DNA of 64,000 nt, from NCBI GenBank assembly GCA_012517475.1, contig JAAYUV010000077.1, forward strand, positions 3,800 to 67,799. Reading direction: 5' to 3'. Below the pieces are notes generated by a model, which ran no database searches, had not been told where the DNA came from, and was given only the letters and a program-made list of their open reading frames with translations. How positions within the stretch are numbered: the stretch's first letter is position 1; each line of letters opens with the position of its first letter. This stretch comes from Peptococcaceae bacterium (lineage in GTDB: Bacteria > Bacillota > Desulfitobacteriia > Desulfitobacteriales > Syntrophobotulaceae). The translations under genes and the position numbers were made by a program. This document shows, piece after piece, positions 2,395 through 64,000 of the stretch.

Positions 2395-2916
2395 TTATTC
2401 ATAAGTAACCTGAAGGGTACCCGGATCAATTATAACCAGTTCCAGATTCTTAGCCCTGGCCCGGTTCACGGTAGCCATCGTCCCTCCAAACTTGCCGTCA
2501 AAAACGGCGATCAACCTTTGAGACCTGTCAACAAGATAGCGGTTGCGTTCCAGATAACAATGCTTATGATAATTCCTGCTGACATAAGTTTCCAGGTCGT
2601 ACTTGGCAAGTAGCCCGAAGTACCTGTCCCGGTCTTCTTCCTGCCAGTGATCGGCCTGGGTCTCGCAAGCCAGGGCAGCTTCCAGGGTAATCTCCGGATA
2701 CCGTTTCCGTAAAGCGATCACCGCTTCCGCAAAATAAGTGTCCGATCCCAAAGCGAAGCCGCTGATAAAGTGGGTATACCCGTTCTTTATCGCGGCTTCT
2801 GTTTCTATGTAAATTAATACTTTCAAATGCACGCAGGCGAGACTTTTTTCGTCATTCTTGAAAGGGAGCTTGGAAGGGCGGTAGCCGGAGAAACCGCAGG
2901 TTTTGGTTATAGTCAT
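2395..2916 (-). CDS. SLOG-fold DUF1273 / YpsA-like protein
   Basis: 173 aa. CGFSGYRPSKLPF..., THFISGFALGSDTYFAE and RNRYLVDRSQRLIAVFDG resemble the YpsA/DUF1273 family. Confidence 0.6.
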   Translation of the reverse strand: MTITKTCGFSGYRPSKLPFKNDEKSLACVHLKVLIYIETEAAIKNGYTHFISGFALGSDTYFAEAVIALRKRYPEITLEAALACETQADHWQEEDRDRYFGLLAKYDLETYVSRNYHKHCYLERNRYLVDRSQRLIAVFDGKFGGTMATVNRARAKNLELVIIDPGTLQVTYE

Positions 2917-3095
2917 TTAAGCACCCCATTTGATATAACTCCTAAAGGAGATTAATTACTTCTGAGGTAATTATATCACTTCTATTACTCCTATGCTATA
3001 TTAATTTACTCTTATGGTTATATTAATTAAGGAATATATTATTTTATAACGCTTGTTGATACAATCAAGCCAAAAGACAATGGAGTGTGTTCCAT

Positions 3096-8345: not shown

Positions 8346-9656
8346 ATGGAAAATCTGACTAATCTTATTGAACAATTCCAACAAATATATAACAAGGATC
8401 AGTCCCAAAAAGCGCTGGAAGAACACCGTCAATTTCTTAACAAGTTCCCCTTGGAAAAACTAAAAACCATGACCGTAGAGGAATATGCCTTAGGCAAAAG
8501 CAAAACCGGTTCCTTCAGCTGGTGGTTGGAATACACGCTGACTCCCGGCAGCATCAAAGGGGGGAGTGCGGCCAAACATATTATCTACTACAGTAAAAAA
8601 GACGCCGCCTGGAAATATCCCAAAGAGTATAACTCGGTGGAGGATGCCTGGGAAAAACTGCGTTCTGACATTTTGGAATTAATCGCTTCCTATGACCAAC
8701 AACCGTTTAGCGGAATATCACCTAACAGTCTTCTTTACTCGGCCAATATGCTGAAAGGGAAAATCCTCTACCTTTATCATCCGGATAAATTCCTGCCAAT
8801 TTACAATCTGGAACATATCCATAAATTCTTACAAGCCTTGGATGTACCCAAAGAAAAATGGCAGGGCAAAGATAATGTGGAGTGTAACCAAGTATTAAAA
8901 AGCGCAGTTGCTTATATAGAAAGGCTTAAAGAATGGGATCCGGAATTAACTACCCGATTTCTTTATCATACTTTTAAACCGGACTATAAGTATTATAAAA
9001 TTGCTCCAGGCCAGGATGGTGTGTACTGGGAAGAGTGTCAAACCGGTGGCTACATATCCATCGGCTGGAATGAAGTCGGCGACTTGCGTCAATATCCCGA
9101 CTATGATGAGTTTAAAAATGCTTTCCTCCAATATAATTTTCAAAAAACAACAGCGAAAAACACGGAAAAAGCCAATGAATTATGGCTCTTCTATAATTTA
9201 AAACCCGGAGACAAAATCCTGGCGAACAAAGGGTCTTCCCTTATTCTGGGAATCGGTACCGTTTCCGACCAGGGCTATGACTACAGGGATGACTTGAGCA
9301 CGCAGAAACACGTGGTATATGTTACGTGGGAAAAAGTCTTTAATCCTCCTTTGGAAATTCCCAAGCAGGACTATTGGCCCTTCAAAACTATCTTAGAGAT
9401 CAGCGTCAAAGAATACCTGGTTTGGACAGACCCGGTAATGAATAGAACTAGCAAATCCATAATTACGACATATAGCAGTGAGGAAGAACGGTTCTTTTCT
9501 CGCCTAGAAACGGCCTTGGAACACAAGGGCCAGTGTATTCTCTATGGCCCCCCGGGAACCGGCAAAACCTTTTTAGCCCGCAGGTTTGTCCAGTGGAAAA
9601 ACGAGAAAGAAAACATTCTAGGCCAGACAGAAAAAAAGCCCTGCGTTTATGGCTGA
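8346..9656 (+). CDS. mcrB: McrB-family AAA+ GTPase, 5' part (N-terminal DNA-reader domains plus Walker A); the frame ends just after an A7 tract
   Basis: YYKIAPGQDGVYWEECQTGGYISIGWNEVGDL module. P-loop: ILYGPPGTGKTFLARRF. The stop comes 8 codons after the A AAA AAG tract at 9632-9638. Confidence 0.75.
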   Translation: MENLTNLIEQFQQIYNKDQSQKALEEHRQFLNKFPLEKLKTMTVEEYALGKSKTGSFSWWLEYTLTPGSIKGGSAAKHIIYYSKKDAAWKYPKEYNSVEDAWEKLRSDILELIASYDQQPFSGISPNSLLYSANMLKGKILYLYHPDKFLPIYNLEHIHKFLQALDVPKEKWQGKDNVECNQVLKSAVAYIERLKEWDPELTTRFLYHTFKPDYKYYKIAPGQDGVYWEECQTGGYISIGWNEVGDLRQYPDYDEFKNAFLQYNFQKTTAKNTEKANELWLFYNLKPGDKILANKGSSLILGIGTVSDQGYDYRDDLSTQKHVVYVTWEKVFNPPLEIPKQDYWPFKTILEISVKEYLVWTDPVMNRTSKSIITTYSSEEERFFSRLETALEHKGQCILYGPPGTGKTFLARRFVQWKNEKENILGQTEKKPCVYG

Positions 9657-10822
9657 TGGTGGCCTCCGTACAGCAGTTTAAATGGGAAAGCATTTTGAAC
9701 AGAGGCGAATATGTAGACTTCGATCTCAAAAGCCTAAAGCAAAATTTTCTTGCCGCTCAAGCAGGGGACAAGGTCATTTGCTACAAAGGCGGGGACAATG
9801 ACCGTGGAATTGTCGGCATTGCCGAAATCGCCCAGCCATATGACGGAAATCACCTTCGAGTTAAAGGCCTGCGCCAATTCAGCAGCACGATTCCTTTTGA
9901 TCATTTGAAGGAATCGGATGTCTATCAAAACAGCCAAGCCGGTCGCATGAATAACAGGGGAACTATGTTTACGGTGGATTATGAGTTTTCCCAGTGGTTG
10001 AAAGATTATTTGCTGGAAGCCGGTGATCAAGAAGCGGCCGGTTTAATTGATGATGTCACTGCCAGCAATAATTTGGAAATCTGTACTTTCCATCCTTCCT
10101 ATAACTATGAAGATTTCATAGAAGGCTATAAACCGATGCCTGGCCCTAACGGTCAGGTCACCTTTAAGTTGGAATCCGGCTTTTTTGCCAGAATCTGCGC
10201 CAAAGCGCAGGAACAAGAGGACAAAGGGGTTCCTTATTTCGTGATTATCGATGAAATTAACCGTGGCAATGTGCCCAAGATCTTTGGAGAAATTATCACT
10301 CTTCTAGAAAAAGACAAGCGGGGAATGGAAGTAATTTTGCCTCAGAGCAAACAGCCTTTCAGTATACCTCCCAACCTCTATTTAATTGGCACGATGAACA
10401 CGTCCGACCGCAGTATCAAAATGATGGATGCGGCCTTGAAAAGAAGGTTCGTTTTTATCGAATGCATGCCTCAAACGGTGCTGATAGATAAAAATATCGA
10501 CAGGATAGGGCTCAGCCCAGGGGCCATTCTCCGGCAGCTGAATGCCAAGCTTACTACCATGGTAGGCAGGGACAAGCAGATAGGCCATGCTTACTTTATG
10601 CGAAACGGGGCGCAAATTACCACGGCCGACGAGCTTAAAGAAATTTATGAACTGGAAATCATACCGCTCGTGCAGGAATATTGTTTTGACGATTACCAGC
10701 AGTTAGCCGAGATCATTGGACAAAATTTCGTGGATGTACAAAACATGACCATTCAGTGGGAAATTTTTACCGGACCTGAGGACATCTTTATCTCCGAAAT
10801 AACCAAACATTTTAATAGTTAA
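9632..10822 (+). CDS. mcrB: McrB-family AAA+ GTPase, 3' part in the -1 frame (EVE/PUA-like insert plus the rest of the AAA+ core)
   Basis: RLWLMVAS...AQAGDKVICYKGG..GIVGIAEIA (EVE-like), then CTFHPSYNYEDFIEGY, Walker B YFVIIDEINRGN, LIGTMNTSDRS and ALKRRF. There is no Walker A of its own. An ATG at 9656 overlaps the upstream TGA. Confidence 0.75.
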   Translation, partial: KKALRLWLMVASVQQFKWESILNRGEYVDFDLKSLKQNFLAAQAGDKVICYKGGDNDRGIVGIAEIAQPYDGNHLRVKGLRQFSSTIPFDHLKESDVYQNSQAGRMNNRGTMFTVDYEFSQWLKDYLLEAGDQEAAGLIDDVTASNNLEICTFHPSYNYEDFIEGYKPMPGPNGQVTFKLESGFFARICAKAQEQEDKGVPYFVIIDEINRGNVPKIFGEIITLLEKDKRGMEVILPQSKQPFSIPPNLYLIGTMNTSDRSIKMMDAALKRRFVFIECMPQTVLIDKNIDRIGLSPGAILRQLNAKLTTMVGRDKQIGHAYFMRNGAQITTADELKEIYELEIIPLVQEYCFDDYQQLAEIIGQNFVDVQNMTIQWEIFTGPEDIFISEITKHFNS

Positions 10823-48261: not shown

Positions 48262-49944
48262 GTGTTGTCGACGGCTTTCTTTATTGCCCGGACGACTGTG
48301 TTGTCCAATAATCTAAATGGGGTGAATCGATTGGCTAAAACGAGAACGAAACGGTTTTTGATCATTATTGCCTTGGTGCTCGCAGGTATTCTTGCGGGGA
48401 CGGCGGCATTTGCCCTCTTTTTTGGCTTAGGCGGCGTGAATATGAATAACCGGGTCAGCTTTCTTTTGATCGGGGCGGATAAAAGGCCGGGGGGAGGTTC
48501 CTATAATGCGGACTCGATCATCGTGGCCAGCTTCGACCCCCAGACGAAACTCGTTTCCCTGCTGTCTATTCCGCGAGATACCCGGGTGACCCTGTCCGGA
48601 TCTAAAAACTATTATAAAATCAATGCCGTTCCGGCCTTAAAAGGAATCCCGGAGCTGGAAAAACAGGTGACGGCGCTGACCGGCATCAAGCTGAACGGCT
48701 ATGTCCTGACCAATTTCGAAGGGTTCAAAGACATTATTGATACGTTGGGCGGGATCACCATCGACGTGGAAAAAAATATGTACTATGAGACCGGGGACAA
48801 AGAGGACGGCTATATCAACCTGAAAGCCGGGGTCCAGAAATTAAACGGTACGAAGGCCCTTCAGTATGCCCGTTTCCGCCATGACGCCACCGCCGACATC
48901 GGGAGGACCGCCAGGCAGCAGAAGGTGCTGACTGCGGTAGCTAAGAAAATGCTTGAACCCCTCACCATCCTGAAACTGCCCGCGCTTGTGCCGCAATTAA
49001 TGAAAGCGGTGGAAACGGACCTGTCTCTGAAAGACCTCACGACACTCGCCGGGGGCGCGAAATCATTCAGCGACGCCAAGATCGTCAGCCAAACCCTGCC
49101 CGGGAATGCGATTAATCTGGACGGGTTAAGCTATTGGGAAGTCAACCGTACGAAAGCCAAAGAAGTCGCCCAAAATCTCCTCCAGGGCAAAACGACCGGT
49201 GATGTTTGGGACAGCTCGGTCATGGCCAACCTGGATGCCGATGTGAAAGCGCACCTTGCCTCACCGGCAACGGAAACGGCTATCGATATGCCCGAAATAC
49301 CCGGAATAACCGTACCCAAAGAGGGAGCGGCACCCGTGAAAACCATCCAAACAGAGCAGTATTCGGGGACAATCACCTGGTCGCCTGACGATAATACCTT
49401 TTTTGCCGGCCAGAGTTATAAGGCAACCATTACCCTTGTTCCCAAAGAAGGATATACCTTAAAAGGCGTTGGGGCGAACTTCTTTACCGTACCAGGGGCA
49501 ACTGCCACAAATGCCGCGGGATCGGGAGTCATTACGGCCTTATTCCCGGCGGCGCAGACTGCGCCGACAGAAACAACACCACCAGGAAAAACACCCACGG
49601 GAACAACTCCAACCGGAACAACACCAACCGGAACAACGCCTACGGAAAAAGCGACTATAATCAGTATTGCGCAAATTGCCGGAGTTACACCGCCTAAACC
49701 CGGAGCAGCGCCTGTAACAACGGTCACCGCCACGGAGCAGTATACCGGGACGGTAATTTGGGCACCGGCCGACAACCCCTTCGGGCAAGGCCGGCAATAC
49801 ACAGCAACGATTACGCTGGTTCCCAAAAAAGGATATACCTTGGAAGGCATCCGCGAAAATTATTTCACCGTACCGGGCGCTACAGCAACCAATGCGGCCG
49901 GATCAGGGATTATCAAGGCGGTCTTTCCGATCTCCGATCAATAA
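48262..49944 (+). CDS. LCP (LytR-CpsA-Psr) family cell-wall glycopolymer transferase with two C-terminal ~85-aa repeats
   Basis: TM anchor. SFLLIGADKR, NADSIIVASFDP and LLSIPRDT. The C-terminal duplicated module (..EQY(S/T)GT(I/V).W.P.DN.F..G..Y.ATITLVPK.GYTL.G...N.FTVPGATATNAAGSG) is separated by a TPTGTTPTGTTPTGTTPT linker. The start may be a TTG at 48331. Confidence 0.8.
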   Translation: MLSTAFFIARTTVLSNNLNGVNRLAKTRTKRFLIIIALVLAGILAGTAAFALFFGLGGVNMNNRVSFLLIGADKRPGGGSYNADSIIVASFDPQTKLVSLLSIPRDTRVTLSGSKNYYKINAVPALKGIPELEKQVTALTGIKLNGYVLTNFEGFKDIIDTLGGITIDVEKNMYYETGDKEDGYINLKAGVQKLNGTKALQYARFRHDATADIGRTARQQKVLTAVAKKMLEPLTILKLPALVPQLMKAVETDLSLKDLTTLAGGAKSFSDAKIVSQTLPGNAINLDGLSYWEVNRTKAKEVAQNLLQGKTTGDVWDSSVMANLDADVKAHLASPATETAIDMPEIPGITVPKEGAAPVKTIQTEQYSGTITWSPDDNTFFAGQSYKATITLVPKEGYTLKGVGANFFTVPGATATNAAGSGVITALFPAAQTAPTETTPPGKTPTGTTPTGTTPTGTTPTEKATIISIAQIAGVTPPKPGAAPVTTVTATEQYTGTVIWAPADNPFGQGRQYTATITLVPKKGYTLEGIRENYFTVPGATATNAAGSGIIKAVFPISDQ

Positions 49945-51216: not shown

Positions 51217-52077
51217 TTACTTATACGACTTATCCATGGTAAAGCCGCGTCCCTTGACCTCATTGACCCGGTTAATAATCATAAACGCATTCGGGTCGAT
51301 GGAAAGGGCCAGTTCGTTGAGCTTATGCAGTTCCCGGTTGGAGACAACGGTCAGTACAACCGGATTATTGTTGTGACAGTAGCCTGTTTCAGCCTGAATT
51401 AAGGTGGAGCCTCTGTCCAGGTGTTGGATGATCATGCGGTTAATTTCCTCATATTTTTTGCTGATGATTTTTACCTGGGTGCGGGATTGTCCGAGTATCA
51501 GCACTTTGTCCAATACGACTGTGTATATCAGCACAAGCAAAATCCCGTAAAGCACCTGTTCTTTATTGGCAAAAAGCATTTGGGAGAGCAGGATCGTGAA
51601 GTCGAAGGCATACAGAACCATTGAAACCGGAAAGCCGAATTTTTTGTTCAGCACCAGCGGAGGGATATCCATGCCGCCGGTGGATGCGCCGGCTTTAATG
51701 ACCAGTCCAAGGCTGAAGCCGATCATGATCCCGGCATAGATCGCGGAAAGCAGGTGATCGGATGTCATATTCTGCAAGGATGGGACTTTCAGAAGGATAC
51801 CGAGGACAAAAGGGTAGTAGAAGGTGCTGATCAGCGTCGTCATGGCAAAAGCTCTCCCGAGAACCAAGGCGCCCAAAATAAACATGGCAATATTGAAAAC
51901 GGAAACAAACAGGGTAATGGGGATACCGAACTGGTGATAAAATAACAGTGCCAAACCGGTTGTTCCGCCTGTAATGAGTCCGCTGGGAAGAATAAAAGCG
52001 GCAACCGCCAAGGCATAGATCGTATTGCCCAGTAAAATCAATCCTATATTTTTATAAATCGCGGACCCTTTAAACAT
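51217..52077 (-). CDS. YitT-family membrane protein (DUF2179 C-terminal domain)
   Basis: GGTTGLALLFYHQFGIPITL..., multiple TM segments, and C-terminal VVLTVVSNRELHKLNELALSIDPNAFMII. AAGGAGA SD lies before the internal ATG at 52077. Confidence 0.8.
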   Translation of the reverse strand: MFKGSAIYKNIGLILLGNTIYALAVAAFILPSGLITGGTTGLALLFYHQFGIPITLFVSVFNIAMFILGALVLGRAFAMTTLISTFYYPFVLGILLKVPSLQNMTSDHLLSAIYAGIMIGFSLGLVIKAGASTGGMDIPPLVLNKKFGFPVSMVLYAFDFTILLSQMLFANKEQVLYGILLVLIYTVVLDKVLILGQSRTQVKIISKKYEEINRMIIQHLDRGSTLIQAETGYCHNNNPVVLTVVSNRELHKLNELALSIDPNAFMIINRVNEVKGRGFTMDKSYK

Positions 52078-52466
52078 GTGACTCGTCTCCTTAGCCGAAC
52101 TCATTTTTTAATGTAGTTGTATTTATTTTGAAATTCGGAACAGTAAAAAAATAACCCATCAAAATTTTAAGTGCAAAATGAACATTTAGCAATCATATTC
52201 AGGCGCAAATTGATAACTTACTTTGCCTGATAGATTCCTCAATTCACCAAGAATTAAGTTTTCTCCCCCGTATATTTTTAATAAAACATGGACTATGAGA
52301 ATTCCCTTCTCAATTTGAAATATTATTAGGATATATCTGACCTTCCAATCTTATAAAGTTAAGAGTTCGTATTTTGAGATATTGTAACGAAAAAAGAAAT
52401 AATAAGGCGAACAATCATAATACCCAAATATTTTAATTAATGGTAAAATTTATAAAACAATAAAAT

Positions 52467-52545
52467 CGGATATATAATTACCAGCTTGGAGTGTAAATAT
52501 TTTTTTGTTTTATTGCATTAATTTAACCAGCATGGAATTTGAAAC
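52467..52545 (+). repeat. two degenerate CRISPR-repeat-like sequences (psi-repeats) in the cas6 5' leader
   Basis: 52515-52545, GCATTAATTTAACCAGCATGGAATTTGAAAC, shares 13-nt and 6-nt identical blocks with the array repeat. 52467-52498 ends in ACCAGCTTGGAGTGTAAAT, versus ACCAAGTGGAATGTAAAG in the repeat. The two are 16 nt apart. Confidence 0.55.
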
Positions 52546-52566
52546 CATAAGCGAGGAGGTGAAACA

Positions 52567-53298
52567 ATGAGGATAAAAGTTGAATTTGAAACGAAGCAGG
52601 AGACTCTTCCCCTGGAATACCGGCGTAAGTTTATTTCCTATCTGAAAAGCGCTTTAGAGGACTACAATGAAGACCTGTATGCCGCATTATACGAAAGCGG
52701 GCATACCCCGAAATCTTTTTGTTTCAGCATTTATTTCCTGCCTGAGGCAACAGTCGCCAAGGAGGGGGTAACGCTTCACAGCAAGCGTTTTATCGCTTGT
52801 TTTATAACTCCGGACGTTCTCATGGGTGTCCATCTGATTAACGCGCTGCTGGGGCGCGGCAAAAGGTGGGTTCCGCTGGCCGATTGTCAGAACCAATTGA
52901 AGATTTTATCCGTCACCAAAGTTCAGGAGTATCCCATTACCGGCAATACCGTCGCCTTTAAGATTCTTTCTCCGGTCGTGGTCCGGGACCATGGCAAAAA
53001 GGAGGGAAGAGACTGGTATCTGACTTTCGAAGACGAAGAATTCGAATCCGTCTGGAAACGCAACTTAAAATCCGAGCTTCAGCATACGTTTGGCCGGGAT
53101 GTGCGCAGTGATGTTGACGCTCTGCAACTCAAACCCATTCACCTTAAAAAGACAGTAGTTCTTAATTACGGAATTTATATCCCTTCAACATTGGGTAACT
53201 TTGTTCTGGAAGGCGAAAAATATCTGCTTGATTATCTCTATAAGGCGGGAATCGGCTCCAAACGTGCACTCGGCTTTGGTTGTCTGGATATCTTGTAG
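52567..53298 (+). CDS. cas6: CRISPR-associated endoribonuclease Cas6
   Basis: First gene of the cas operon. The C-terminal glycine-rich loop GIGSKRALGFGCLD is typical of Cas6. Confidence 0.85.
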   Translation: MRIKVEFETKQETLPLEYRRKFISYLKSALEDYNEDLYAALYESGHTPKSFCFSIYFLPEATVAKEGVTLHSKRFIACFITPDVLMGVHLINALLGRGKRWVPLADCQNQLKILSVTKVQEYPITGNTVAFKILSPVVVRDHGKKEGRDWYLTFEDEEFESVWKRNLKSELQHTFGRDVRSDVDALQLKPIHLKKTVVLNYGIYIPSTLGNFVLEGEKYLLDYLYKAGIGSKRALGFGCLDIL

Positions 53299-53315
53299 AA
53301 AGGAGGAGGTGAAAA

Positions 53316-55051
53316 ATGAAAAATAACACCCATTTAAAACTTGTATTGGGCGACTGGCAGTGGAATGCTTCTATCTACGGATTTATTAATATCGTCGGCA
53401 AAGAAAACGTCGACCTTATTGAGGATACCGTAACTTTTTCCACAGACCTTTTAGAAGGGTTTGCTGAAAAATATTTCGGCTATTTCATCCGTACTTACGA
53501 AAAAACCTTGTCTTGGTATAAAATCGTTTCTTTTGCTGAGAAAATGGAAGCTTATGAAGATGACGCGTTTGCAGGGTTTAATCTGGAAGCGCTGAAAAGC
53601 TTTAATATCTACCTCAAAGATGTTAAGCGTTTTCTTAAGAGCAACAGCTACAAAGCCGCTTATGAACTGATTACGCTGAACGTGGACATGCCCTCATTGG
53701 AAAAACAGTTGACAGCCATCAAAGAGCCCAAAGATCAACAACAGTTTGAGGCGGGAAAATCGGGTATTATTACCGAAGTGCAGAACAATTTTATTGTCTT
53801 GCGGCCAATTATTGCCTATTGTAACAGCCCGGAAGGGAAAAAATATATCCGGGCTAAAAATGTCATCTATACGATTATCAATAATGCCTGGGATGGCGTA
53901 AGTTTTCTTGATCGCCAACCCAAAGAAAAGGATGTTTACACCTCTTATAAAAAGTACTTTGTCGATGGGGCTGTGGAATATCTTCAGCAAAATAAGAGCC
54001 ATCACAAGTACAATTGTTTTATCTGTGACGCACCGATCAAAGATCTGAACCATACATTAAGCTTTCTCAATGAAACCGGCTTTGACGTAGGCAAAAAATC
54101 ATCCCATGTCTGGGATTTCCAAAATGATATCGCCCTCTGCCCGTTATGCAAACTGATTTATTCTTGTTTGCCGGCCGGCCTGGCTTATGGTTACAACCAC
54201 GGGCTCTATATTAATGCCAATCAGGATGTAGAAACAGTCTTTAAGATTAATCATGTCCTCAAAACGGAAATCTTGGGAGTAAAAGAAGGGAATATCCGGA
54301 CGATCTACCCCATTTTGGTAAATGCTTTGCACCAAAAGGAACATGATACGGCTAAATATGAATTAGCCGATATCCAAGTCGTGCGTTATGAAAACGACAG
54401 TTACCGTTTCAATATACTATCCCGCAAAATGCTGGAAATCATCGTTGAAAGCAAAGACGAACTGGATGGTCTGCTTAAAGCTGTTTTTATGGAAAACGGG
54501 ATGACTGTCCGCGTTTATGACGAGGTGATTGTCCGGATTTTCAACAACCAGAACCTGTTTACCCTGATTCACCGGATGATCTACCATAAGCTTGCCAATC
54601 CGGCCAGGTGTTATTTTAATGGGGCCCATATAATGTATTTATTAAAAATTAACCAAAAAATCTATACCCGTTTAGGAGGGATGGAAGTGGAAAGAGGAGA
54701 GGAAACCAGGCAAAACCAGTTTTTAATTGGGAATGCCAAAGAGGCAGGGCAGAATTTAAGAAAGAGATACTATGGCAAAGACGCCCAGCATAAGCTGCCG
54801 GGAATTTGCTACCGCTTGCTCAATGCCCTGAAAACAGCCAATAAAGACATGTTTATGGATGTAACCCTAAACTGCTATCTCTATGTCAGGGCGCAAGTAC
54901 CCGAAGTAATCACCAGGGCCTTGAGCAATGAAAAAGATTTTTCCACCATGGGCTATGCCTTTGTGGCCGCGCTGATTGACGAACCCGAAGGAAAAAGCCT
55001 ACCGGGAGAAAAGGAGAATACGGCACCCGAAGCCGGTGAGGAGGAATTGGT

Positions 55052-55055
<4 letters not shown>
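53316..55055 (+). CDS. cas8b: type I-B large subunit Cas8b (Cst1-like)
   Basis: 579 aa between cas6 and cas7. Cys-rich CFICDAPI...CPLCKLIYSC zinc-finger region. Confidence 0.75.
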
Positions 55056-56660
<1,605 letters not shown>

Positions 56661-56671
56661 GGAGAATGGTG

Positions 56672-59038
56672 ATGGAAATGGATAAAAATGCCCTGGCCAA
56701 ATCCTATCCGGAAGAGGATATTCAAACCCATACCGATTGTTTGCTGAAAAATCTGGAACTGTTAAAAGAGTTATATCCCAATCTGTTTTCGGATTGGGAT
56801 TCCTTCTATGACCTGTTGCGGCTGGCCTGCATTTATCACGATTTCGGCAAGTTATACCCGCGCTTCCAATATTGCCTCAAAAACAGGATTCCTTATACGG
56901 ACGGCCTTCCGCATGGCCTTTTGAGCCTGGCCTTTATTGATTACAAGTGGTTAAAAAAAGAAAAGGGATTGAAAAAAGAAGAACTGAGGCTCTTATTTCA
57001 GGCGGTCGCTTATCACCATGATCGAAAGATGCCGTATGACAACAACGAGATAGACAAAGAATTGGTCAAACTTCAGGCGCCGAATAACCGTTTTGCCTAT
57101 GACAAGCAGCCAAGCAAATTTTTAGCTGAGGAAATCGAAGCGGCATATTTCAGCGTCGGCGAAAGATTCAACCAAAAAGACAAGAGCCTGTTTTTCCGCT
57201 TTATCATGCTGGAAGGATTGCTCAACCGTTTGGACTATGCGGCCAGCGCCCATATTCCGGTCGAACAGCCGCCCGGCTTTCTGCCGTCGGCACTGGAAGC
57301 GCTCATGAACCGCTGGCAGGCCAAACAGCCGGAAGCCCGTTGGAATGACCTGCAGAATTATATGCGCCAACACGCAACTAACAATGTGATCGCCATTGCC
57401 CAGACCGGCATGGGCAAAACCGAAGCCGGTTTGCTGTGGCTCGGCAAGAGCAAAGGATTTTTCACCCTGCCCTTAAAAAGCGCCATCAATGCCATTTACG
57501 AGCGCCTTACAAACGATATTATTTTGGAACATAAAGAAGAACAGGTCGGTCTGCTGCATTCGGACACCTACAGCAAATACCTCGAAAATGAGCAGGACCA
57601 GAAAAAAACAGAGGCTAACGATGCGTTTGAGAGTGAAGGGGTATCCTCCGATCTCTACTATACCAGGACCAGGCAGTTATCCCTGCCTTTAACCGTCTGT
57701 ACTTTGGACCAGCTTTTCGGCTTTGTTTTCCTGTACCGGGGCTTTGAGTACAAACTGGCGACCTTGGCCTACTCCAAAATCATTATCGATGAGGTGCAGA
57801 TGTATTCTCCCGACCTGATTGCTTATCTGGTTTTGGGGCTGCGTTATATCACCCGGATGGGAGGGCAGTTTGCCGTTCTGACCGCGACTCTGCCCGCTTT
57901 TTTCCTGGATTTGCTCCGGGAGCAGGAGATTCCTTTCGAATCCCCTCAAGTTTTTACCGATAACCGGATTCGTCATAGTCTCAAAGTCATCGACAGGGAA
58001 ATCAATGCCCGGGATATTGCTGATTTAATCCGGCAGTATGGCGGAAAGAAAATTCTGGTGATCTGCAACACCATCAAAAGCGTAATTAAGCTTTATCACC
58101 AGCTTGCCTGGGATAAGGAAAAGGGACAGGCGCAAGCGGTTGCGCCTTTGCCGCAGGGTGGGGAAACAACCGCTGAAAGCGCCGAGAAGCCGGGCGTCTA
58201 TCTGCTTCATGGTAATTTCACCAAAGAAGACAGGCGCAAAAAGGAAGAACACATTTTAAGGATGGGGCGGAAGGAGAGTGCGGAAAGCTGCATCTGGATT
58301 GCTACCCAGATTGTCGAAGCTTCTCTGGATATCGATTTTGATTTACTGTTTACCGAACTGTCGGACTTGAACGGGTTGTTTCAACGTATGGGCCGGTGCT
58401 TCAGAAAACGGATTCTGGGCGATCTTCTTTACAACTGTTTTGTCTTTACCGGCGGTAACAGACTGTGCAGCGGTGTCGGACTATTTATTGACAAAGAAAT
58501 CCACCGCCTCTCCAAAGAAGCCTTGTCGGGAGTGGACGGCATTATAGACGAAGCACAAAAAGTGGCCATGGTGCAAGACCTTTACACCAGGGAAAAGCTG
58601 CCGGCGTATTACGCAAAAATAAAAGATACCATTGATTATGTGGATTGCCGTTCACCCTATGAGATTAACAAAGCGGAAGCCGATAAGCGTTTCCGGGATA
58701 TCGACACGGTTAGCGTGATTCCGCGCACGGTTTTCGAAGCCCGCCAAGCGGAAATCAGACAGGCTGTGGCAGTTTTGCAGAAAGATTACGACGGGCTGGA
58801 CAGAACGCAGGTAAGGGAGTTAAGAACGAAGGCCCGGGAGACGATCATGAACCTGACGGTGGATATTTCTAAATATTTGTATAAGAACATAGAAACCGGA
58901 GAAAAGGACACGATCCGAATCAGTGATTATGAACAAATTAAAATCGTCGAATGTGATTATAACAGCCAGGAGGGAATTATTCGCCCCACAATGAAACCAA
59001 AAGCAGAAGTAACGGATTTCTTCTCGCATTCTTTCTAA
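56672..59038 (+). CDS. cas3: Cas3 HD nuclease / SF2 helicase
   Basis: HD motifs: ACIYHDFGK and VAYHHD. Helicase motifs: AQTGMGKTEA, IIIDEVQMY, LTATLP. The ORF is open from 56666; the ATG at 56672 has better SD spacing. Confidence 0.9.
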   Translation: MEMDKNALAKSYPEEDIQTHTDCLLKNLELLKELYPNLFSDWDSFYDLLRLACIYHDFGKLYPRFQYCLKNRIPYTDGLPHGLLSLAFIDYKWLKKEKGLKKEELRLLFQAVAYHHDRKMPYDNNEIDKELVKLQAPNNRFAYDKQPSKFLAEEIEAAYFSVGERFNQKDKSLFFRFIMLEGLLNRLDYAASAHIPVEQPPGFLPSALEALMNRWQAKQPEARWNDLQNYMRQHATNNVIAIAQTGMGKTEAGLLWLGKSKGFFTLPLKSAINAIYERLTNDIILEHKEEQVGLLHSDTYSKYLENEQDQKKTEANDAFESEGVSSDLYYTRTRQLSLPLTVCTLDQLFGFVFLYRGFEYKLATLAYSKIIIDEVQMYSPDLIAYLVLGLRYITRMGGQFAVLTATLPAFFLDLLREQEIPFESPQVFTDNRIRHSLKVIDREINARDIADLIRQYGGKKILVICNTIKSVIKLYHQLAWDKEKGQAQAVAPLPQGGETTAESAEKPGVYLLHGNFTKEDRRKKEEHILRMGRKESAESCIWIATQIVEASLDIDFDLLFTELSDLNGLFQRMGRCFRKRILGDLLYNCFVFTGGNRLCSGVGLFIDKEIHRLSKEALSGVDGIIDEAQKVAMVQDLYTREKLPAYYAKIKDTIDYVDCRSPYEINKAEADKRFRDIDTVSVIPRTVFEARQAEIRQAVAVLQKDYDGLDRTQVRELRTKARETIMNLTVDISKYLYKNIETGEKDTIRISDYEQIKIVECDYNSQEGIIRPTMKPKAEVTDFFSHSF

Positions 59039-59084
59039 AAGCGCTGGACTCCTTGCTGTAACCGGGGAGGTGAGGGTAAAAACC

Positions 59085-59573
59085 ATGCGTATTACGGGAA
59101 CAATGTTTTATTATTACTTCGTCTGCCGGAGAAAACTATGGTGTTTTTGTCAAAACATTGCCTTTGAAAACGAGAGTGAAAGCGTACTGCTGGGCAAGTT
59201 GCTTGACGAAACGGCCTACGGCAGGGAACACAAACACCTGATGATCGATGAAACGGTCAATGTGGACTTTATCAGGGATTGGAAAGTGCTGCACGAGGTT
59301 AAGAAAAGCAAAAGCATCGAAGAAGCTTCCATTTGGCAAGTAAAATACTATTTGTACTTCCTCCGGCAAAGAGGGATCAAAATCGAAAAAGGCATCTTGG
59401 ATTACCCGAAGATCAAAAAACGCCAGGAAATTTTCCTGCAGGAAGGGGATGCAGAAAAAATTGAAACCCTATTAGCCGATATCCAAGCGGTTATCGCCCA
59501 GGAAAAGATGCCGCCGCCCATCCATTGGAAAATATGTAAAAGCTGTGCTTATTACGAGTATTGTTATGTGTAA
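59085..59573 (+). CDS. cas4: Cas4 RecB-like exonuclease
   Basis: N-terminal Cys (YYYFVCRRKLW), EVKKSK nuclease core and C-terminal CKSCAYYEYC Fe-S cysteines. Confidence 0.85.
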   Translation: MRITGTMFYYYFVCRRKLWCFCQNIAFENESESVLLGKLLDETAYGREHKHLMIDETVNVDFIRDWKVLHEVKKSKSIEEASIWQVKYYLYFLRQRGIKIEKGILDYPKIKKRQEIFLQEGDAEKIETLLADIQAVIAQEKMPPPIHWKICKSCAYYEYCYV

Positions 59574-59585
59574 AGGAGTGTCAAT

Positions 59586-60578
59586 ATGGCGGAAAGTTTC
59601 TATTTGTTTTCCGACGGTGAGTTGCAGCGAAAAGACAATGTATTGCGGATGGTCGCACCGGATGGACGGTTCAAAGATATCAAAATAGAAATGACGCGGG
59701 ATATATTTTTATTCGGAGAAGTGAGCCTAAACACCAAATGTCTCAATTACGCCGGCCAGCTTTCCATCCCGATTCACTTTTTCAACTACTATGGCTTTTA
59801 CACGGGAAGCTTCTACCCCAAAGAAGAAAATGTCTCGGGCAAATTGCTGATTGAACAAGTCCGGCGCTATACGGAATCTGATAAGCGGTTGGAAATCGCC
59901 AAAGCCTTTATTGAGGCGGCAAGTTATAATATTTTAAGGAACCTGCGTTATTACAGCGAGCGTAACCGGGATTTGGAAGCCTGCTTGTCGGAAATCAAGG
60001 CTTTAAGACGGGGAATTGAGCAGGCTAAAGATGTGCATGAATTGATGGGCTTGGAAGGAAGTATTCGCCGGGCCTATTACAGCGGCTGGAACGAGATCGT
60101 CAAGCAGGAGATTGATTTTGAAAAGAGGGTAAAACGCCCTCCCGACAATATGATTAATGCCTTAATCTCCTTTGTAAACTCTCTCGTTTATGTAACCTGC
60201 CTCACAGAAATCTATAAAACCCAACTCCATCCCGCCGTAAGTTATTTGCATAGCGCCGGGGAACGGAGATTTTCTCTTTGTCTGGATATTTCGGAAGTGT
60301 TTAAACCCTTAATCGCCGATCGCTTAATCTTCTCCATGCTGAATAAGAATATGCTGACAGAAAAGGATTTTGAGCGGGAATCAAATTTTTGCTATATGAA
60401 AGAAGCAGGGCGCAAACGACTATTGGAGGAATATGACGAAGCCTTAAAACGTACCATCCGGCATAAGGATTTGAATAAGGAAGTCTCTTACCGGCATTTA
60501 ATCCGTTTGGAATGCTATAAACTGATCAAACATCTTATGGGTGAGAAAAAATACGAAGGGTTTACCATTTGGTGGTGA
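59586..60578 (+). CDS. cas1: Cas1 integrase
   Basis: 330 aa. LMGLEGSIRRAYY, NALISFVNSLVY and SYLHS...SLCLDISEVFKP are conserved Cas1 blocks. Confidence 0.9.
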   Translation: MAESFYLFSDGELQRKDNVLRMVAPDGRFKDIKIEMTRDIFLFGEVSLNTKCLNYAGQLSIPIHFFNYYGFYTGSFYPKEENVSGKLLIEQVRRYTESDKRLEIAKAFIEAASYNILRNLRYYSERNRDLEACLSEIKALRRGIEQAKDVHELMGLEGSIRRAYYSGWNEIVKQEIDFEKRVKRPPDNMINALISFVNSLVYVTCLTEIYKTQLHPAVSYLHSAGERRFSLCLDISEVFKPLIADRLIFSMLNKNMLTEKDFERESNFCYMKEAGRKRLLEEYDEALKRTIRHKDLNKEVSYRHLIRLECYKLIKHLMGEKKYEGFTIWW

Positions 60579-60584
60579 TGAGCG

Positions 60585-60863
60585 ATGTATATTATCCTGG
60601 TCTATGATATTGAAATGGATGAGGGAGGGCCTAAAGCCTCAAGAAGGATTTTCAAGACATGTAAGAAATATTTAACCCATGTGCAGAAATCGGTCTTTGA
60701 GGGTGATATCACCCCGGCCTTATTAAAAAAACTGCAGGTTGAATTAAGTCCCCATATTCGCGAAGACAGGGATTCGGTACTGATATTCAAAAGCAGAGAA
60801 GAACGCTGGTTGCAAAAAGAATTTTGGGGGAAAGTGGATGATAAAACATCAAACTTTTTTTAG
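60585..60863 (+). CDS. cas2: Cas2
   Basis: 92 aa. MYIILVYDI...QKSVFEGDI is the Cas2 ferredoxin-like pattern. Confidence 0.9.
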   Translation: MYIILVYDIEMDEGGPKASRRIFKTCKKYLTHVQKSVFEGDITPALLKKLQVELSPHIREDRDSVLIFKSREERWLQKEFWGKVDDKTSNFF

Positions 60864-61063: not shown

Positions 61064-64000
61064 CGATTAATTTAACCAAGTGGAATGTAAAGACCGGATT
61101 AAAGCAATAACAGGCAAGGCTAACTGGCGATTAATTTAACCAAGTGGAATGTAAAGCAGTCCACAAATCTCAGGGTTCAGAATTCCCGCTGGCGATTAAT
61201 TTAACCAAGTGGAATGTAAAGTGCAAAGGGCTTTCCGGATTACTACCTGAGAAATCCGATTAATTTAACCAAGTGGAATGTAAAGTGAGAACATCGAAGA
61301 CTTGAAAGGGGCTTTGCTTGACGATTAATTTAACCAAGTGGAATGTAAAGGGGAATATTGGTTTATATAGCTTCTCCTTAGAGGGCGATTAATTTAACCA
61401 AGTGGAATGTAAAGATCTTTTCCTATGTTTCTTTCAGACGGCAGACCATTCGATTAATTTAACCAAGTGGAATGTAAAGTTCCCTGGGGGACATTGTAGA
61501 ATACCCATCGCAGCGCGATTAATTTAACCAAGTGGAATGTAAAGTTCTTTTCTGCCGGGATTGGCCGCCCGGCTTTCGGCCGATTAATTTAACCAAGTGG
61601 AATGTAAAGTTGGAAGATTGTTTTTTACTATGATGTTGTGGAACCGATTAATTTAACCAAGTGGAATGTAAAGATAATCCGGCCGCAAATCAAATAGTCT
61701 ATCTGGAACCGATTAATTTAACCAAGTGGAATGTAAAGCCCTCCTACCTCAGCATTCCATTTATATAAAGCAGCCGATTAATTTAACCAAGTGGAATGTA
61801 AAGAACTGCAGGAGCTTGAAATTAAGCGCATGAATGCCGCGATTAATTTAACCAAGTGGAATGTAAAGGTAGTTACCGGCGGCGTTATAGCGGATACGAA
61901 GTCCGATTAATTTAACCAAGTGGAATGTAAAGGGTGAAGACCTTGAACAAATCTTTACCGATATCGGCCGATTAATTTAACCAAGTGGAATGTAAAGGAA
62001 CAAAACGCTTTAATAATTCCCGGGATGGACGGTCGATTAATTTAACCAAGTGGAATGTAAAGACCGTTACAATTGTTCTAAGTTCTCCCTCTCCCTGCGA
62101 TTAATTTAACCAAGTGGAATGTAAAGTAATGATCTGCCGGCCGGTTTTTTGCCCATATTTGGCGATTAATTTAACCAAGTGGAATGTAAAGCTGAATATA
62201 GTTCATAACATCCCTGTGAGCCTCTTCGATTAATTTAACCAAGTGGAATGTAAAGAAGACACTACCGGCTCTGGATAACAGCGACAGTTGTACGATTAAT
62301 TTAACCAAGTGGAATGTAAAGTAGGAACACAAAGAAACAATAATACACAATCCTATGCGATTAATTTAACCAAGTGGAATGTAAAGCATCTACAGGTAAA
62401 ATCAATTCTCATCAATTGCACCCGATTAATTTAACCAAGTGGAATGTAAAGAATGGACCGAATGATCGAAGGTTCTGGGACCCCAAGCGATTAATTTAAC
62501 CAAGTGGAATGTAAAGTTGTAACCGGCTACGATCAACCGGTGACAAACCAAACGATTAATTTAACCAAGTGGAATGTAAAGAAGGGTAAACCTCGTACAT
62601 CCGCCAAATCAATGCTCGCGATTAATTTAACCAAGTGGAATGTAAAGTGCCTTATCTGCCTAATAGCCCCACTAACCCGGCAACGATTAATTTAACCAAG
62701 TGGAATGTAAAGGCTCCCAATTCGATATTCCTGGGCGCCTGTTTCAACGATTAATTTAACCAAGTGGAATGTAAAGAGATTAAGCTTTGCAGCTTTTTCA
62801 CGGATAGCAATTCTGCGATTAATTTAACCAAGTGGAATGTAAAGCTGACTGGGGAGAACAAACCGGCTGCTGGAGGTTCCCGATTAATTTAACCAAGTGG
62901 AATGTAAAGTCTGTAACAATTTGTTGCTTAGTGCTGCTGCCGTTAACGATTAATTTAACCAAGTGGAATGTAAAGCCGACTATGGCAAACTATATTAACC
63001 GGTCAGCCCAGCGATTAATTTAACCAAGTGGAATGTAAAGATTCATTACAACTACTGGGTAAAGTTCAAATCCGGCGATTAATTTAACCAAGTGGAATGT
63101 AAAGTTCTTTTAACTCCTGCTTGCATTTAGGATTATCAACGATTAATTTAACCAAGTGGAATGTAAAGGTAATTGAAGAATTTTTAGAAGCATGGAAACA
63201 AAAAGCGATTAATTTAACCAAGTGGAATGTAAAGGCCAAACTCAGCGACAATAAAATACTTGAGGACAGACGATTAATTTAACCAAGTGGAATGTAAAGG
63301 TGGAGTAAGCTCGCCTCACTTCCCCCGGTATATCCGATTAATTTAACCAAGTGGAATGTAAAGACCTACAAATTTGGACCAATCTGGAAAGAGTGGGAAC
63401 GATTAATTTAACCAAGTGGAATGTAAAGTTGGAAATGCAGCATTTATCAGACAAAGAAAATCTAACGATTAATTTAACCAAGTGGAATGTAAAGTGAGTA
63501 CTCTAATCCAAATGATGCTATCAAGGACACGATTAATTTAACCAAGTGGAATGTAAAGAGAATTGATAAAGTTCATAAGCAATTCCGGCTCACGATTAAT
63601 TTAACCAAGTGGAATGTAAAGGCTCCCAATTCGATATTCCTGGGCGCCTGTTTCAATCGATTAATTTAACCAAGTGGAATGTAAAGATCTATCCGGTACC
63701 CCGCTGCAGCCAGGGCTAACAAACGATTAATTTAACCAAGTGGAATGTAAAGGTTTTTACACATGTCCTCAGGAATGACGTCAATTACGATTAATTTAAC
63801 CAAGTGGAATGTAAAGAAAGCTCTCACACCCATTTTAAGTCGAGAGATAAACGATTAATTTAACCAAGTGGAATGTAAAGTAATAGATTTTTCCAGACTT
63901 GAGCTTTTAGCCTTACGATTAATTTAACCAAGTGGAATGTAAAGAAATCAAGGTGGTGAATATATATCGTGGATATAGCACCGATTAATTTAACCAAGTG
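61064..64000 (+). CRISPR. type I-B CRISPR array, 46 repeats (last cut by the window end), 45 complete spacers
   Basis: CGATTAATTTAACCAAGTGGAATGTAAAG (29 nt) is invariant in every copy I read. The first copy is at 61064. Spacers are 34-39 nt. The + orientation is inferred from the cas2-proximal leader and from resemblance to clostridial I-B repeats of the ...AAGTGGTATGTAAAT type, which I am recalling from memory. Confidence 0.97.

Follow-up and report, generated by a model that had tools for sequence, protein, structure and literature searches.

The type I-B CRISPR-Cas (clustered and regularly interspaced short palindromic repeats with their associated proteins) locus of a Peptococcaceae bacterium, contained in a 64-kb stretch of DNA (the window), has a short repeat-like cassette in the 5' leader of its cas operon, directly in front of cas6. 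The cassette consists of two degenerate copies of the array repeat, psiR1 and psiR2, on either side of a 16-nucleotide (nt) spacer-like segment, psiS (Table 1). We conclude that psiR1-psiS-psiR2 is very probably a CreR-type regulatory mini-array, and the sequence-level features of the CreR or regulatory mini-array class are present in it, the PAM (protospacer-adjacent motif) being a putative one. The original prediction, made from the window without database searches, had named a CreA/CreR-type regulator that uses Cascade on the cas promoter as its leading option, and comparative evidence from related loci supports this. The sequences it quoted were located as described (TGGTAAAAT at 52441-52449, ATAAAACAATAAAAT at 52452-52466, psiR1, ATTTTTTTGTTTTATT and psiR2).

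Gapped alignment to the array repeat (CGATTAATTTAACCAAGTGGAATGTAAAG), which the original prediction had proposed as a check, gives 25/30 identities for psiR2 (19/22 + 6/8) and 22/30 for psiR1 (16/22 + 6/8, with the 6/8 falling in the handle). psiR2 is 15/16 identical to the family core AATCTAACCAnnnTGGAAT, and exact copies of the 13-mer ATTAATTTAACCA occur within the window only in the array and in psiR2 (at 52517), with ~0.29 matches expected per window when up to one mismatch is allowed. Outside the array, TGGAATGTAAA with at most one mismatch is found in psiR1 (as TGGAGTGTAAA) and at one other site, 2.0 such matches being expected. The likeness to the repeat thus exceeds chance for psiR2, while psiR1 taken alone is weaker evidence, so that the case for it rests on where it lies and on how it is conserved in relatives.

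The last 8 nt of psiR1 (GTGTAAAT, 52491-52498) form a candidate 5' handle, whose 8-nt length we take from general knowledge of type I-B systems. Predicted Cas6 cuts in psiR1 (52490/52491) and psiR2 (52536/52537) would yield a mature RNA of ~46 nt (52491-52536), its 3' part being formed by the 5' 22 nt of psiR2. The tail of psiR2 (ATTTGAAAC) has diverged from the handle sequence, and the degenerate repeats themselves are essentially unstructured according to fold prediction. With its degenerate repeats, a 16-nt psiS as opposed to true spacers of 35-40 nt and no similarity to the true leader, the cassette does not qualify as a canonical array; it lies 8.5 kb away from the main array, and a leader homologous to the true array leader was sought upstream of it and not found. 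An Rfam scan of 52000-52700 returned nothing relevant.

Since the ribosome-binding site (RBS) of cas6 lies only 7 nt after psiR2, there is no space for a separate promoter outside the mini-array. This short gap, within which no terminator-like site is present, also makes it simplest to place the mini-array and cas6 on one transcript. Processing of the regulator by Cas6 would then trim the cas mRNA leader as well. Cleavage by Cas6 of its own mRNA leader had been put forward as an alternative explanation; because the mini-array is located in the cas6 5' leader, such cleavage follows from the CreR model and is no rival to it.

psiS has a protospacer-like match on the minus strand immediately upstream of psiR1, with a CCG directly 5' of it that would serve as protospacer-adjacent motif (PAM). 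The original prediction had suggested a search for a PAM-flanked match near the cas promoter, and the target at 52451-66 with its CCG is such a match. The match starts exactly at psiS position 1, contains a seed mismatch at position 6, and begins 2 nt after the extended -10-like TGGTAAAAT. CCN followed by ATTTTNTTGTT has a single exact match in the window, which is the target. The strand that pairs with the crRNA-like RNA (crRNA, CRISPR RNA) at this site would be the plus strand, which is the non-template one.

The flanking triplet is CCG in the window and either CCA or CCG at all 16 targets identified here, and a functional PAM of this kind is suggested by analogy to Clostridioides difficile. 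The array repeat of the window belongs to the same family as the I-B repeat of C. difficile, which reads GTATTATATTAACTAAGTGGTATGTAAAG in an array carried by a C. difficile phage. PAM-library and conjugation assays have determined the functional PAM of C. difficile I-B to be CCN (YCN) (PMC8406132).

Relatives of Cas6 came from a protein search, whose 81 hits were mostly 57-80% identical, from scans of genome and metagenome collections and from exact-protein look-ups, yielding a comparison set of 24 non-redundant related loci with Cas6 58-80% identical, one of which (L020) lacks upstream DNA. Conservation of the repeat pair, a further check proposed in the original prediction, is extensive: psiR1, a short segment and psiR2 occur in this order directly before the cas6 RBS in 17 of the 24 relatives. 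Cultured carriers are Desulfitibacter alkalitolerans DSM 16504 (L026), Desulfotruncus arcticus DSM 17038 (L006) and Syntrophobotulus glycolicus DSM 8271 (L032). The cassette is absent from six relatives, with fragments only in L001, L003 and L005 and nothing in L017, L018 and L021; re-examination of these six for hidden mini-arrays revealed no PAM-flanked targets.

Conservation within the cassette is selective. When psiR1 is compared with the array repeat of the respective locus, identity over 11 loci amounts to 89% in its last 8 nt and 69% in its 5' part, and the psiR2 core TTAATCTAACCAnnATGGAAT is kept in all 15 aligned loci. The psiR2 tail, which in a real repeat would be the next handle, has diverged across loci (GGAATTT... 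versus GGAATGTAAA), and its decay presumably prevents the cas6 mRNA from being loaded as a guide.

These patterns bear on the possibility that the cassette has no function, being the final decayed repeats left over from a former array upstream of cas6, as the original prediction had also considered. The repeats are indeed degenerate, six relatives lack the element (with L020 not assessable), and in L030 and L031 this place holds four repeats together with two spacers of normal length, so that arrays can exist here. Position, order and short spacer are nevertheless kept in 17 relatives, whose Cas6 identity goes as low as 58%, psiR1 handle and psiR2 core are selectively conserved, nothing is shared with the true leader, and the PAM-flanked target co-varies with the guide, whereas neutral decay would not keep complementarity. 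We therefore consider a lost array extremely improbable, since the cassette is conserved and co-varying.

In two metagenomic relatives (L028, 854-1333; L029, 153-1211) an IS110-family transposase gene lies directly upstream of the cas6 promoter and mini-array cassette, and in both the cassette itself is intact.

Targets were sought in each carrier as the best-scoring ungapped match to nt 1-12 of psiS on both strands of ~380 nt, comprising the first 30 nt of cas6 and the 350 nt upstream of it. The top match lies upstream of psiR1 and on the minus strand in the window and 14 carriers, and the frequency of equally good matches among shuffled sequences ranges from 0 to 57 in 2000 per locus. It is flanked by CCA in 13 loci and by CCG in two, the window and the Desulfitibacter locus L012; a 16th target, that of L030, again has CCA and is located ~270 nt upstream. 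As the background frequency of GG on the plus strand of the intergenic region is only 2.4%, the CCA/CCG flank is not compositional. The distance between guide and target arms varies from 28 to 71 nt, apart from the ~270 nt in L030. L004 is truncated by the end of its contig.

The guides fall into 11 seed families (ATTTTTTTGT, TGTATTAGTT, AGCATTAATT, GTATTTATTA, ATGTTAAATT, GTTTAGTTAT, GTGTTCATGT, TAAATCATAT, AGTTTATTGT, ATTTTCAAAT and ATATATGTAG), and for 10 of these the matching sequence is present at the best upstream site. The GTGTTCATGT family comprises L013 and L014, with a target in L014 only. As differing seeds have matching upstream sites, guide and target evolve together.

The mismatches between guide and target are not evenly distributed. 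Position 1 is mismatched in none of 15 guide-target pairs, position 6 in 11 and position 12 in seven, with at most three mismatches at any other position from 1 to 12; hence positions 6 and 12 together account for 18 of the 23 seed mismatches (binomial P = 1.4e-10). Most of the mismatches at these two positions are true non-pairs (U-U, C-U, G-G, A-A) and not G-U wobbles, and pairing decays beyond approximately nt 13-16 in the 15 pairs. An unpaired base at every sixth position (5+1 periodicity) is the signature of type I Cascade-target pairing. For mini-arrays, sixth-base unpairing together with partial seed-proximal pairing has been described as a trait of repressing guides (PMC10120712).

The same two A/T arms could instead be read as a cis-acting RNA hairpin around psiR1 that controls translation, stability or Cas6 access with no Cascade-DNA targeting. 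Guide-target co-variation would preserve an RNA helix equally well, and the upstream arm would be transcribed if transcription starts at the candidate promoter P1 or, in relatives, at upstream TTGACA promoters, though it would remain untranscribed if P2 is the promoter. The original prediction had described a 15-bp A/T stem bracketing psiR1: the complementarity is present (14/15 between 52452-66 and 52499-513), but a notable RNA structure is not, with a minimum free energy of -15.3 kcal/mol for 52450-52570 against -16.4 ± 3.0 for shuffled sequences (z = +0.37). Furthermore, a hairpin explains neither the invariant CCA or CCG beside the arm in 16 loci, given the low GG background, nor the start of pairing exactly one base after the 8-nt handle, nor the accumulation of mismatches, mostly non-pairs, at positions 6 and 12, and it sits poorly with the variable distance between the arms. 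On the energy, PAM and position-6/12 evidence we discarded this reading, which we judge to be very improbable.

Several points weigh against a CreR-type regulator. When the window is considered alone, 27 of 2000 shuffled spacers match at ≥11/12 with a CCN flank, and because the sequences are A/T-rich the single match is suggestive but not conclusive; it is the comparative data from relatives that make the guide-target reading decisive. Those loci are phylogenetically related, so that the counts are not fully independent. L013 carries a mini-array with no detectable target, and off-register seed mismatches occur in L028 and L024 (positions 5 and 11, and position 2). Promoter and transcription start are predicted, with two candidates, P1 and P2. 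At 16 nt, psiS is much below the 35-40-nt spacers that Cascade normally carries, and the assembly of a working Cascade on such a guide is hypothetical. Finally, the PAM of the system is not derived from its own spacers, for which our searches found no protospacers: a BLAST search of 50,697 phage records with the complete array returned only a C. difficile phage CRISPR array, through repeat similarity, 365 unique spacers from all fetched arrays had no credible protospacer in any of the fetched loci, and the three leader-proximal spacers, with N at every sixth base, gave 0 matches in IMG/VR.

A regulator mimic carried by phages was also looked for. The handle-plus-seed pattern had 0 matches in IMG/VR, and BLAST of 52400-52570 against phages yielded only A/T-rich chance matches.

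The psiS of the window is the shortest of the set, those of relatives being 17-25 nt long. With the spacer boundaries adopted here, lengths cluster at 23-25 nt in 11 of 18 cassettes (window included) and at 16-21 nt in the other seven, i.e. ~12 and ~18 nt below the true 36-37-nt spacers, with psiR2 boundaries uncertain by ±2 nt. This is only a hint that the clusters might correspond to whole Cas7 steps.

The mini-array without a target deserves separate mention. In L013, and likewise in L033 and L034, it lies at ~9880-10000 with a psiS beginning GTGTTCATGTGTC..., and no PAM-flanked seed match is present within 350 nt or in the rest of the 20-kb locus. The seed is shared by the sister locus L014, where it has a good target. 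The L013 mini-array may be a recently orphaned regulator.

In the window, P1 has an extended -10 of the form TGgTAAAAT, while P2 would place the psiS target between its -35 and -10. Canonical promoters (TTGACA-17-(-10)) immediately precede the target in L002, L007, L014, L015, L016 and L022, and near-canonical ones are found at the equivalent place in L008 (TTGACT) and L019 (TTAACA); the target in relatives begins 1-20 nt after the -10. A TATAAT 3-16 nt after the PAM complement is also present in L006, L007 and L032. Whether P1 or P2 is used, a Cascade occupying 52451-69 would overlap with the core promoter or start site.

From the observed anatomy, conservation, co-variation, PAM and mismatch pattern we infer a path of processing, Cascade loading and repression. 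The upstream promoter would transcribe psiR1-psiS-psiR2, cas6 and the downstream genes together. Cas6 would cut both degenerate repeats to release an RNA of ~46 nt, made up of an 8-nt handle (GUGUAAAU), a 16-nt guide and a 22-nt 3' part, on which Cas5, Cas7 and Cas8b would assemble. The complex would read the CCG PAM at 52467-69, with guide nt 1-15 pairing to plus strand 52452-66 and position 6 left unpaired, and the short R-loop formed at the target would obstruct RNA polymerase. An R-loop of only ~15 bp would not license Cas3, so that the promoter would be repressed rather than cut. Output of Cas proteins and regulator would thus be limited by free Cascade. Canonical crRNAs from the array and the regulator would be competitors for Cas proteins, and repression would be lifted when these crRNAs or anti-CRISPRs occupy them; such crRNA sensing is proposed by analogy with the published work on CreR.

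A related possibility is a CreTA-type addiction module, in which the RNA is an antitoxin (CreA) that mainly represses a small toxin gene and not cas. CreA and CreR architectures are identical, and in L030 a 54-amino-acid (aa) open reading frame (ORF) lies between target and mini-array. In the window, however, the target borders directly on psiR1, and psiR2 in turn on the cas6 RBS, which leaves no coding space and hence no room for a toxin between target, mini-array and cas6. The ORFs in 52105-52566 are only 20-34 aa long, have TTG starts and lack support, and other PAM-flanked seed matches in the 64 kb are at chance level (three with ≤1 mismatch, 1.3 expected). The element is almost certainly not an antitoxin of this kind.

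The L030 locus (9500-10000; the same in L031) has four repeats 5' of cas6, where a 23-nt psiS is followed by 40- and 36-nt spacers, and its 54-aa ORF (9591-9755) is inserted between the PAM-flanked target (~9516-9534) and the mini-array. Acquisition of spacers by this mini-array is one possibility, regulation of a cargo gene another.

Experiments have shown that CreR mini-CRISPRs, by pairing partially with cas promoters, bring about autorepression of effectors of types I-B, I-E and V-A (Liu et al. 2023, bioRxiv 10.1101/2023.03.10.532045). The systems of that study are the Haloarcula I-B CreA/CreR, Salmonella I-E CreR and V-A CreR, and repression was found to respond to crRNA load and anti-CRISPRs. 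The window element shares with CreR the psiR1-psiS-psiR2 layout, a psiR1 that keeps 5'-handle nucleotides, seed-proximal partial pairing (~11-15 nt) to a cas-promoter site with a flanking PAM (in the window, a predicted promoter and a putative PAM) and the lack of a toxin partner. The retained psiR1 handle and diverged psiR2 tail seen in the clade fit the published description of CreA/CreR repeats. The expected outcome is also the same, namely Cas autorepression that senses crRNA load and anti-CRISPRs, which for the window is a prediction. Unlike CreR, the guide lies inside the 5' leader of the operon it would repress, psiS has only 16 nt, and the target is upstream of psiR1 on the opposite strand, with promoter, target and guide within ~75 nt. 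As the target is upstream and inverted, the guide is placed in the leader of the transcript it would repress, and the regulator would consequently repress its own synthesis together with cas.

A survey of I-B loci found that 27% contain repeat-like sequences close to cas6 and that ~19% of the bacterial loci possess mini-arrays; targets in the cas6 promoter region with proper PAM were predicted, and sixth-position mismatches were noted (Shmakov et al. 2023, PMC10120712). Their examples from Clostridium perfringens and Fusobacterium resemble the present case in being of type I-B, upstream of cas6 and matched to a promoter-region target with a I-B PAM, which in the window is a putative one. In those cases the target is located downstream, between mini-array and cas6, whereas in the window it is upstream and inverted, and their spacers are 20-60 bp long compared to 16-25 nt in the clade of the window.

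The haloarchaeal I-B CreTA likewise employs a degenerate mini-CRISPR RNA that guides Cascade to a promoter by partial pairing, but the window has no toxin gene and the promoter to be repressed drives the cas operon itself. Further parallels are tracr-L (II-A) and scaRNA (Francisella II-B), natural guides with ~11-15 nt of complementarity that turn a nuclease into a transcriptional repressor; tracr-L represses its own operon, as proposed for the window element. These differ in belonging to class 2 Cas9 systems and in using tracrRNA-derived RNA that is not processed by Cas6. We regard the upstream inverted target, the leader-embedded guide and the short psiS as variations in wiring and not as a new kind of regulator.

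Mechanism and occurrence upstream of cas6 in I-B loci were both published in 2023, and the concept is unchanged by the present analysis. It adds a clade of anaerobic Firmicutes (Peptococcaceae, Desulfotomaculaceae and Desulfitobacteriaceae, including three cultured species) to the predicted mini-CRISPR autoregulators of cas, although the supplementary tables of Shmakov et al. might already list genomes of this clade. The 16 co-varying guide-target pairs amount to a natural mutagenesis experiment for bacterial type I-B Cascade, from which the PAM (CCA, less often CCG), the selected pairing length (~11-16 nt) and the unpaired positions 6 and 12 can be read. Such pairing rules are useful for the design of CRISPR interference with endogenous I-B systems in anaerobes that are hard to engineer.

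A more far-reaching interpretation, which we put forward as speculative and rather unlikely, is that the clade carries a minimal cis-wired CreR, with promoter, PAM-flanked target and 16-25-nt guide in a module that may span ~75-130 nt (~75 nt in the window) within the cas operon leader, and with two novel properties. Firstly, a Cascade assembled on the short guide would lack two or three of the usual Cas7 subunits, and its structure would prevent it from recruiting Cas3, an inherent safeguard in addition to partial complementarity. Secondly, with guide and target inverted on one transcript, the nascent leader could mask the guide seed until Cas6 separates the two, and this could add an RNA-level delay to the feedback loop.

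The original prediction had also drawn attention to a second copy of the psiR2 3' end, GAATTTGAAAC, inside the first codons of cas6. The copy exists, at 52582-52592 and not at 52585-52595, but a functional meaning for it could not be upheld. It encodes the conserved residues E-F-E-T, and the match to the psiR2 tail is confined to the window (0 of 17 relatives, where the longest shared strings are 0-7 nt), and we therefore consider it a coding coincidence and reject it as a functional element.

Table 1 Features of the cas6 leader and of the surrounding type I-B locus in the window.
Feature	Position	Strand	Details
Candidate promoter P1, extended -10 TGGTAAAAT	52441-52449	+	sequence; no good -35 (TACCCA, 52421-26)
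Candidate promoter P2, TTTATA-18-TATAAT	52449-52478	+	TATAAT at 52473-78; consensus scan 10/12
Protospacer-like target of psiS, minus strand reads ATTTTATTGTTTTATA	52451-52466	-	14/16 match; mismatches at 6 and 16
Putative PAM, CCG (CGG on plus)	52467-52469	-	directly 5' of protospacer
psiR1 (psi-1), upstream degenerate repeat	52467-52498	+	ends ACCAGCTTGGAGTGTAAAT
psiS, spacer-like guide ATTTTTTTGTTTTATT	52499-52514	+	16 nt; between psiR1 and psiR2
psiR2 (psi-2), downstream degenerate repeat GCATTAATTTAACCAGCATGGAATTTGAAAC	52515-52545	+	repeat similarity
cas6 RBS, GAGGAGG	52553-52559	+	7 nt after psiR2; GGAGG conserved in aligned loci
cas6	52567-53298	+	ATG at 52567
Type I-B cas operon (cas6, cas8b, cas7, cas5, cas3, cas4, cas1, cas2)	52567-60863	+	ORFs
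CRISPR array	61064-64000	+	45 full repeats and one cut at the window end; runs off the window

The type I-B locus on the plus strand of the window is complete, with NCBIfam matches above the model cut-offs for all cas genes of the operon. Its Cas6 is identical to a protein annotated in a Peptococcaceae bacterium metagenome-assembled genome, as found by protein search. A 200-nt leader separates the end of cas2 (60863) from the array. The intergenic region 5' of cas6 (52105-52566) has 462 nt with 27% G+C, and a membrane-protein gene in divergent orientation lies beyond it.

Further repeats were observed elsewhere in the window. One array spacer (GCTCCCAATTCGATATTCCTGGGCGCCTGTTTCAA) is present twice, at 62713-62748 and 63620-63655, which indicates an internal duplication or repeated acquisition. 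On the minus strand, two tandem 22-nt units at 2985-3028, upstream of ORF 2395-2916(-), have reverse complements starting ATTAATATAACCA and ATTAATATAGCA that are 12/13 like the 5' half of the CRISPR repeat. They are without a handle-like part, 0.29 such matches are expected per window, and they are probably due to chance or an operator. A 15/30-nt tandem repeat of ~4 AACAACACCAACCGG-like copies at 49572-49650, within a 560-aa ORF (48262-49944), presumably encodes a low-complexity protein segment.

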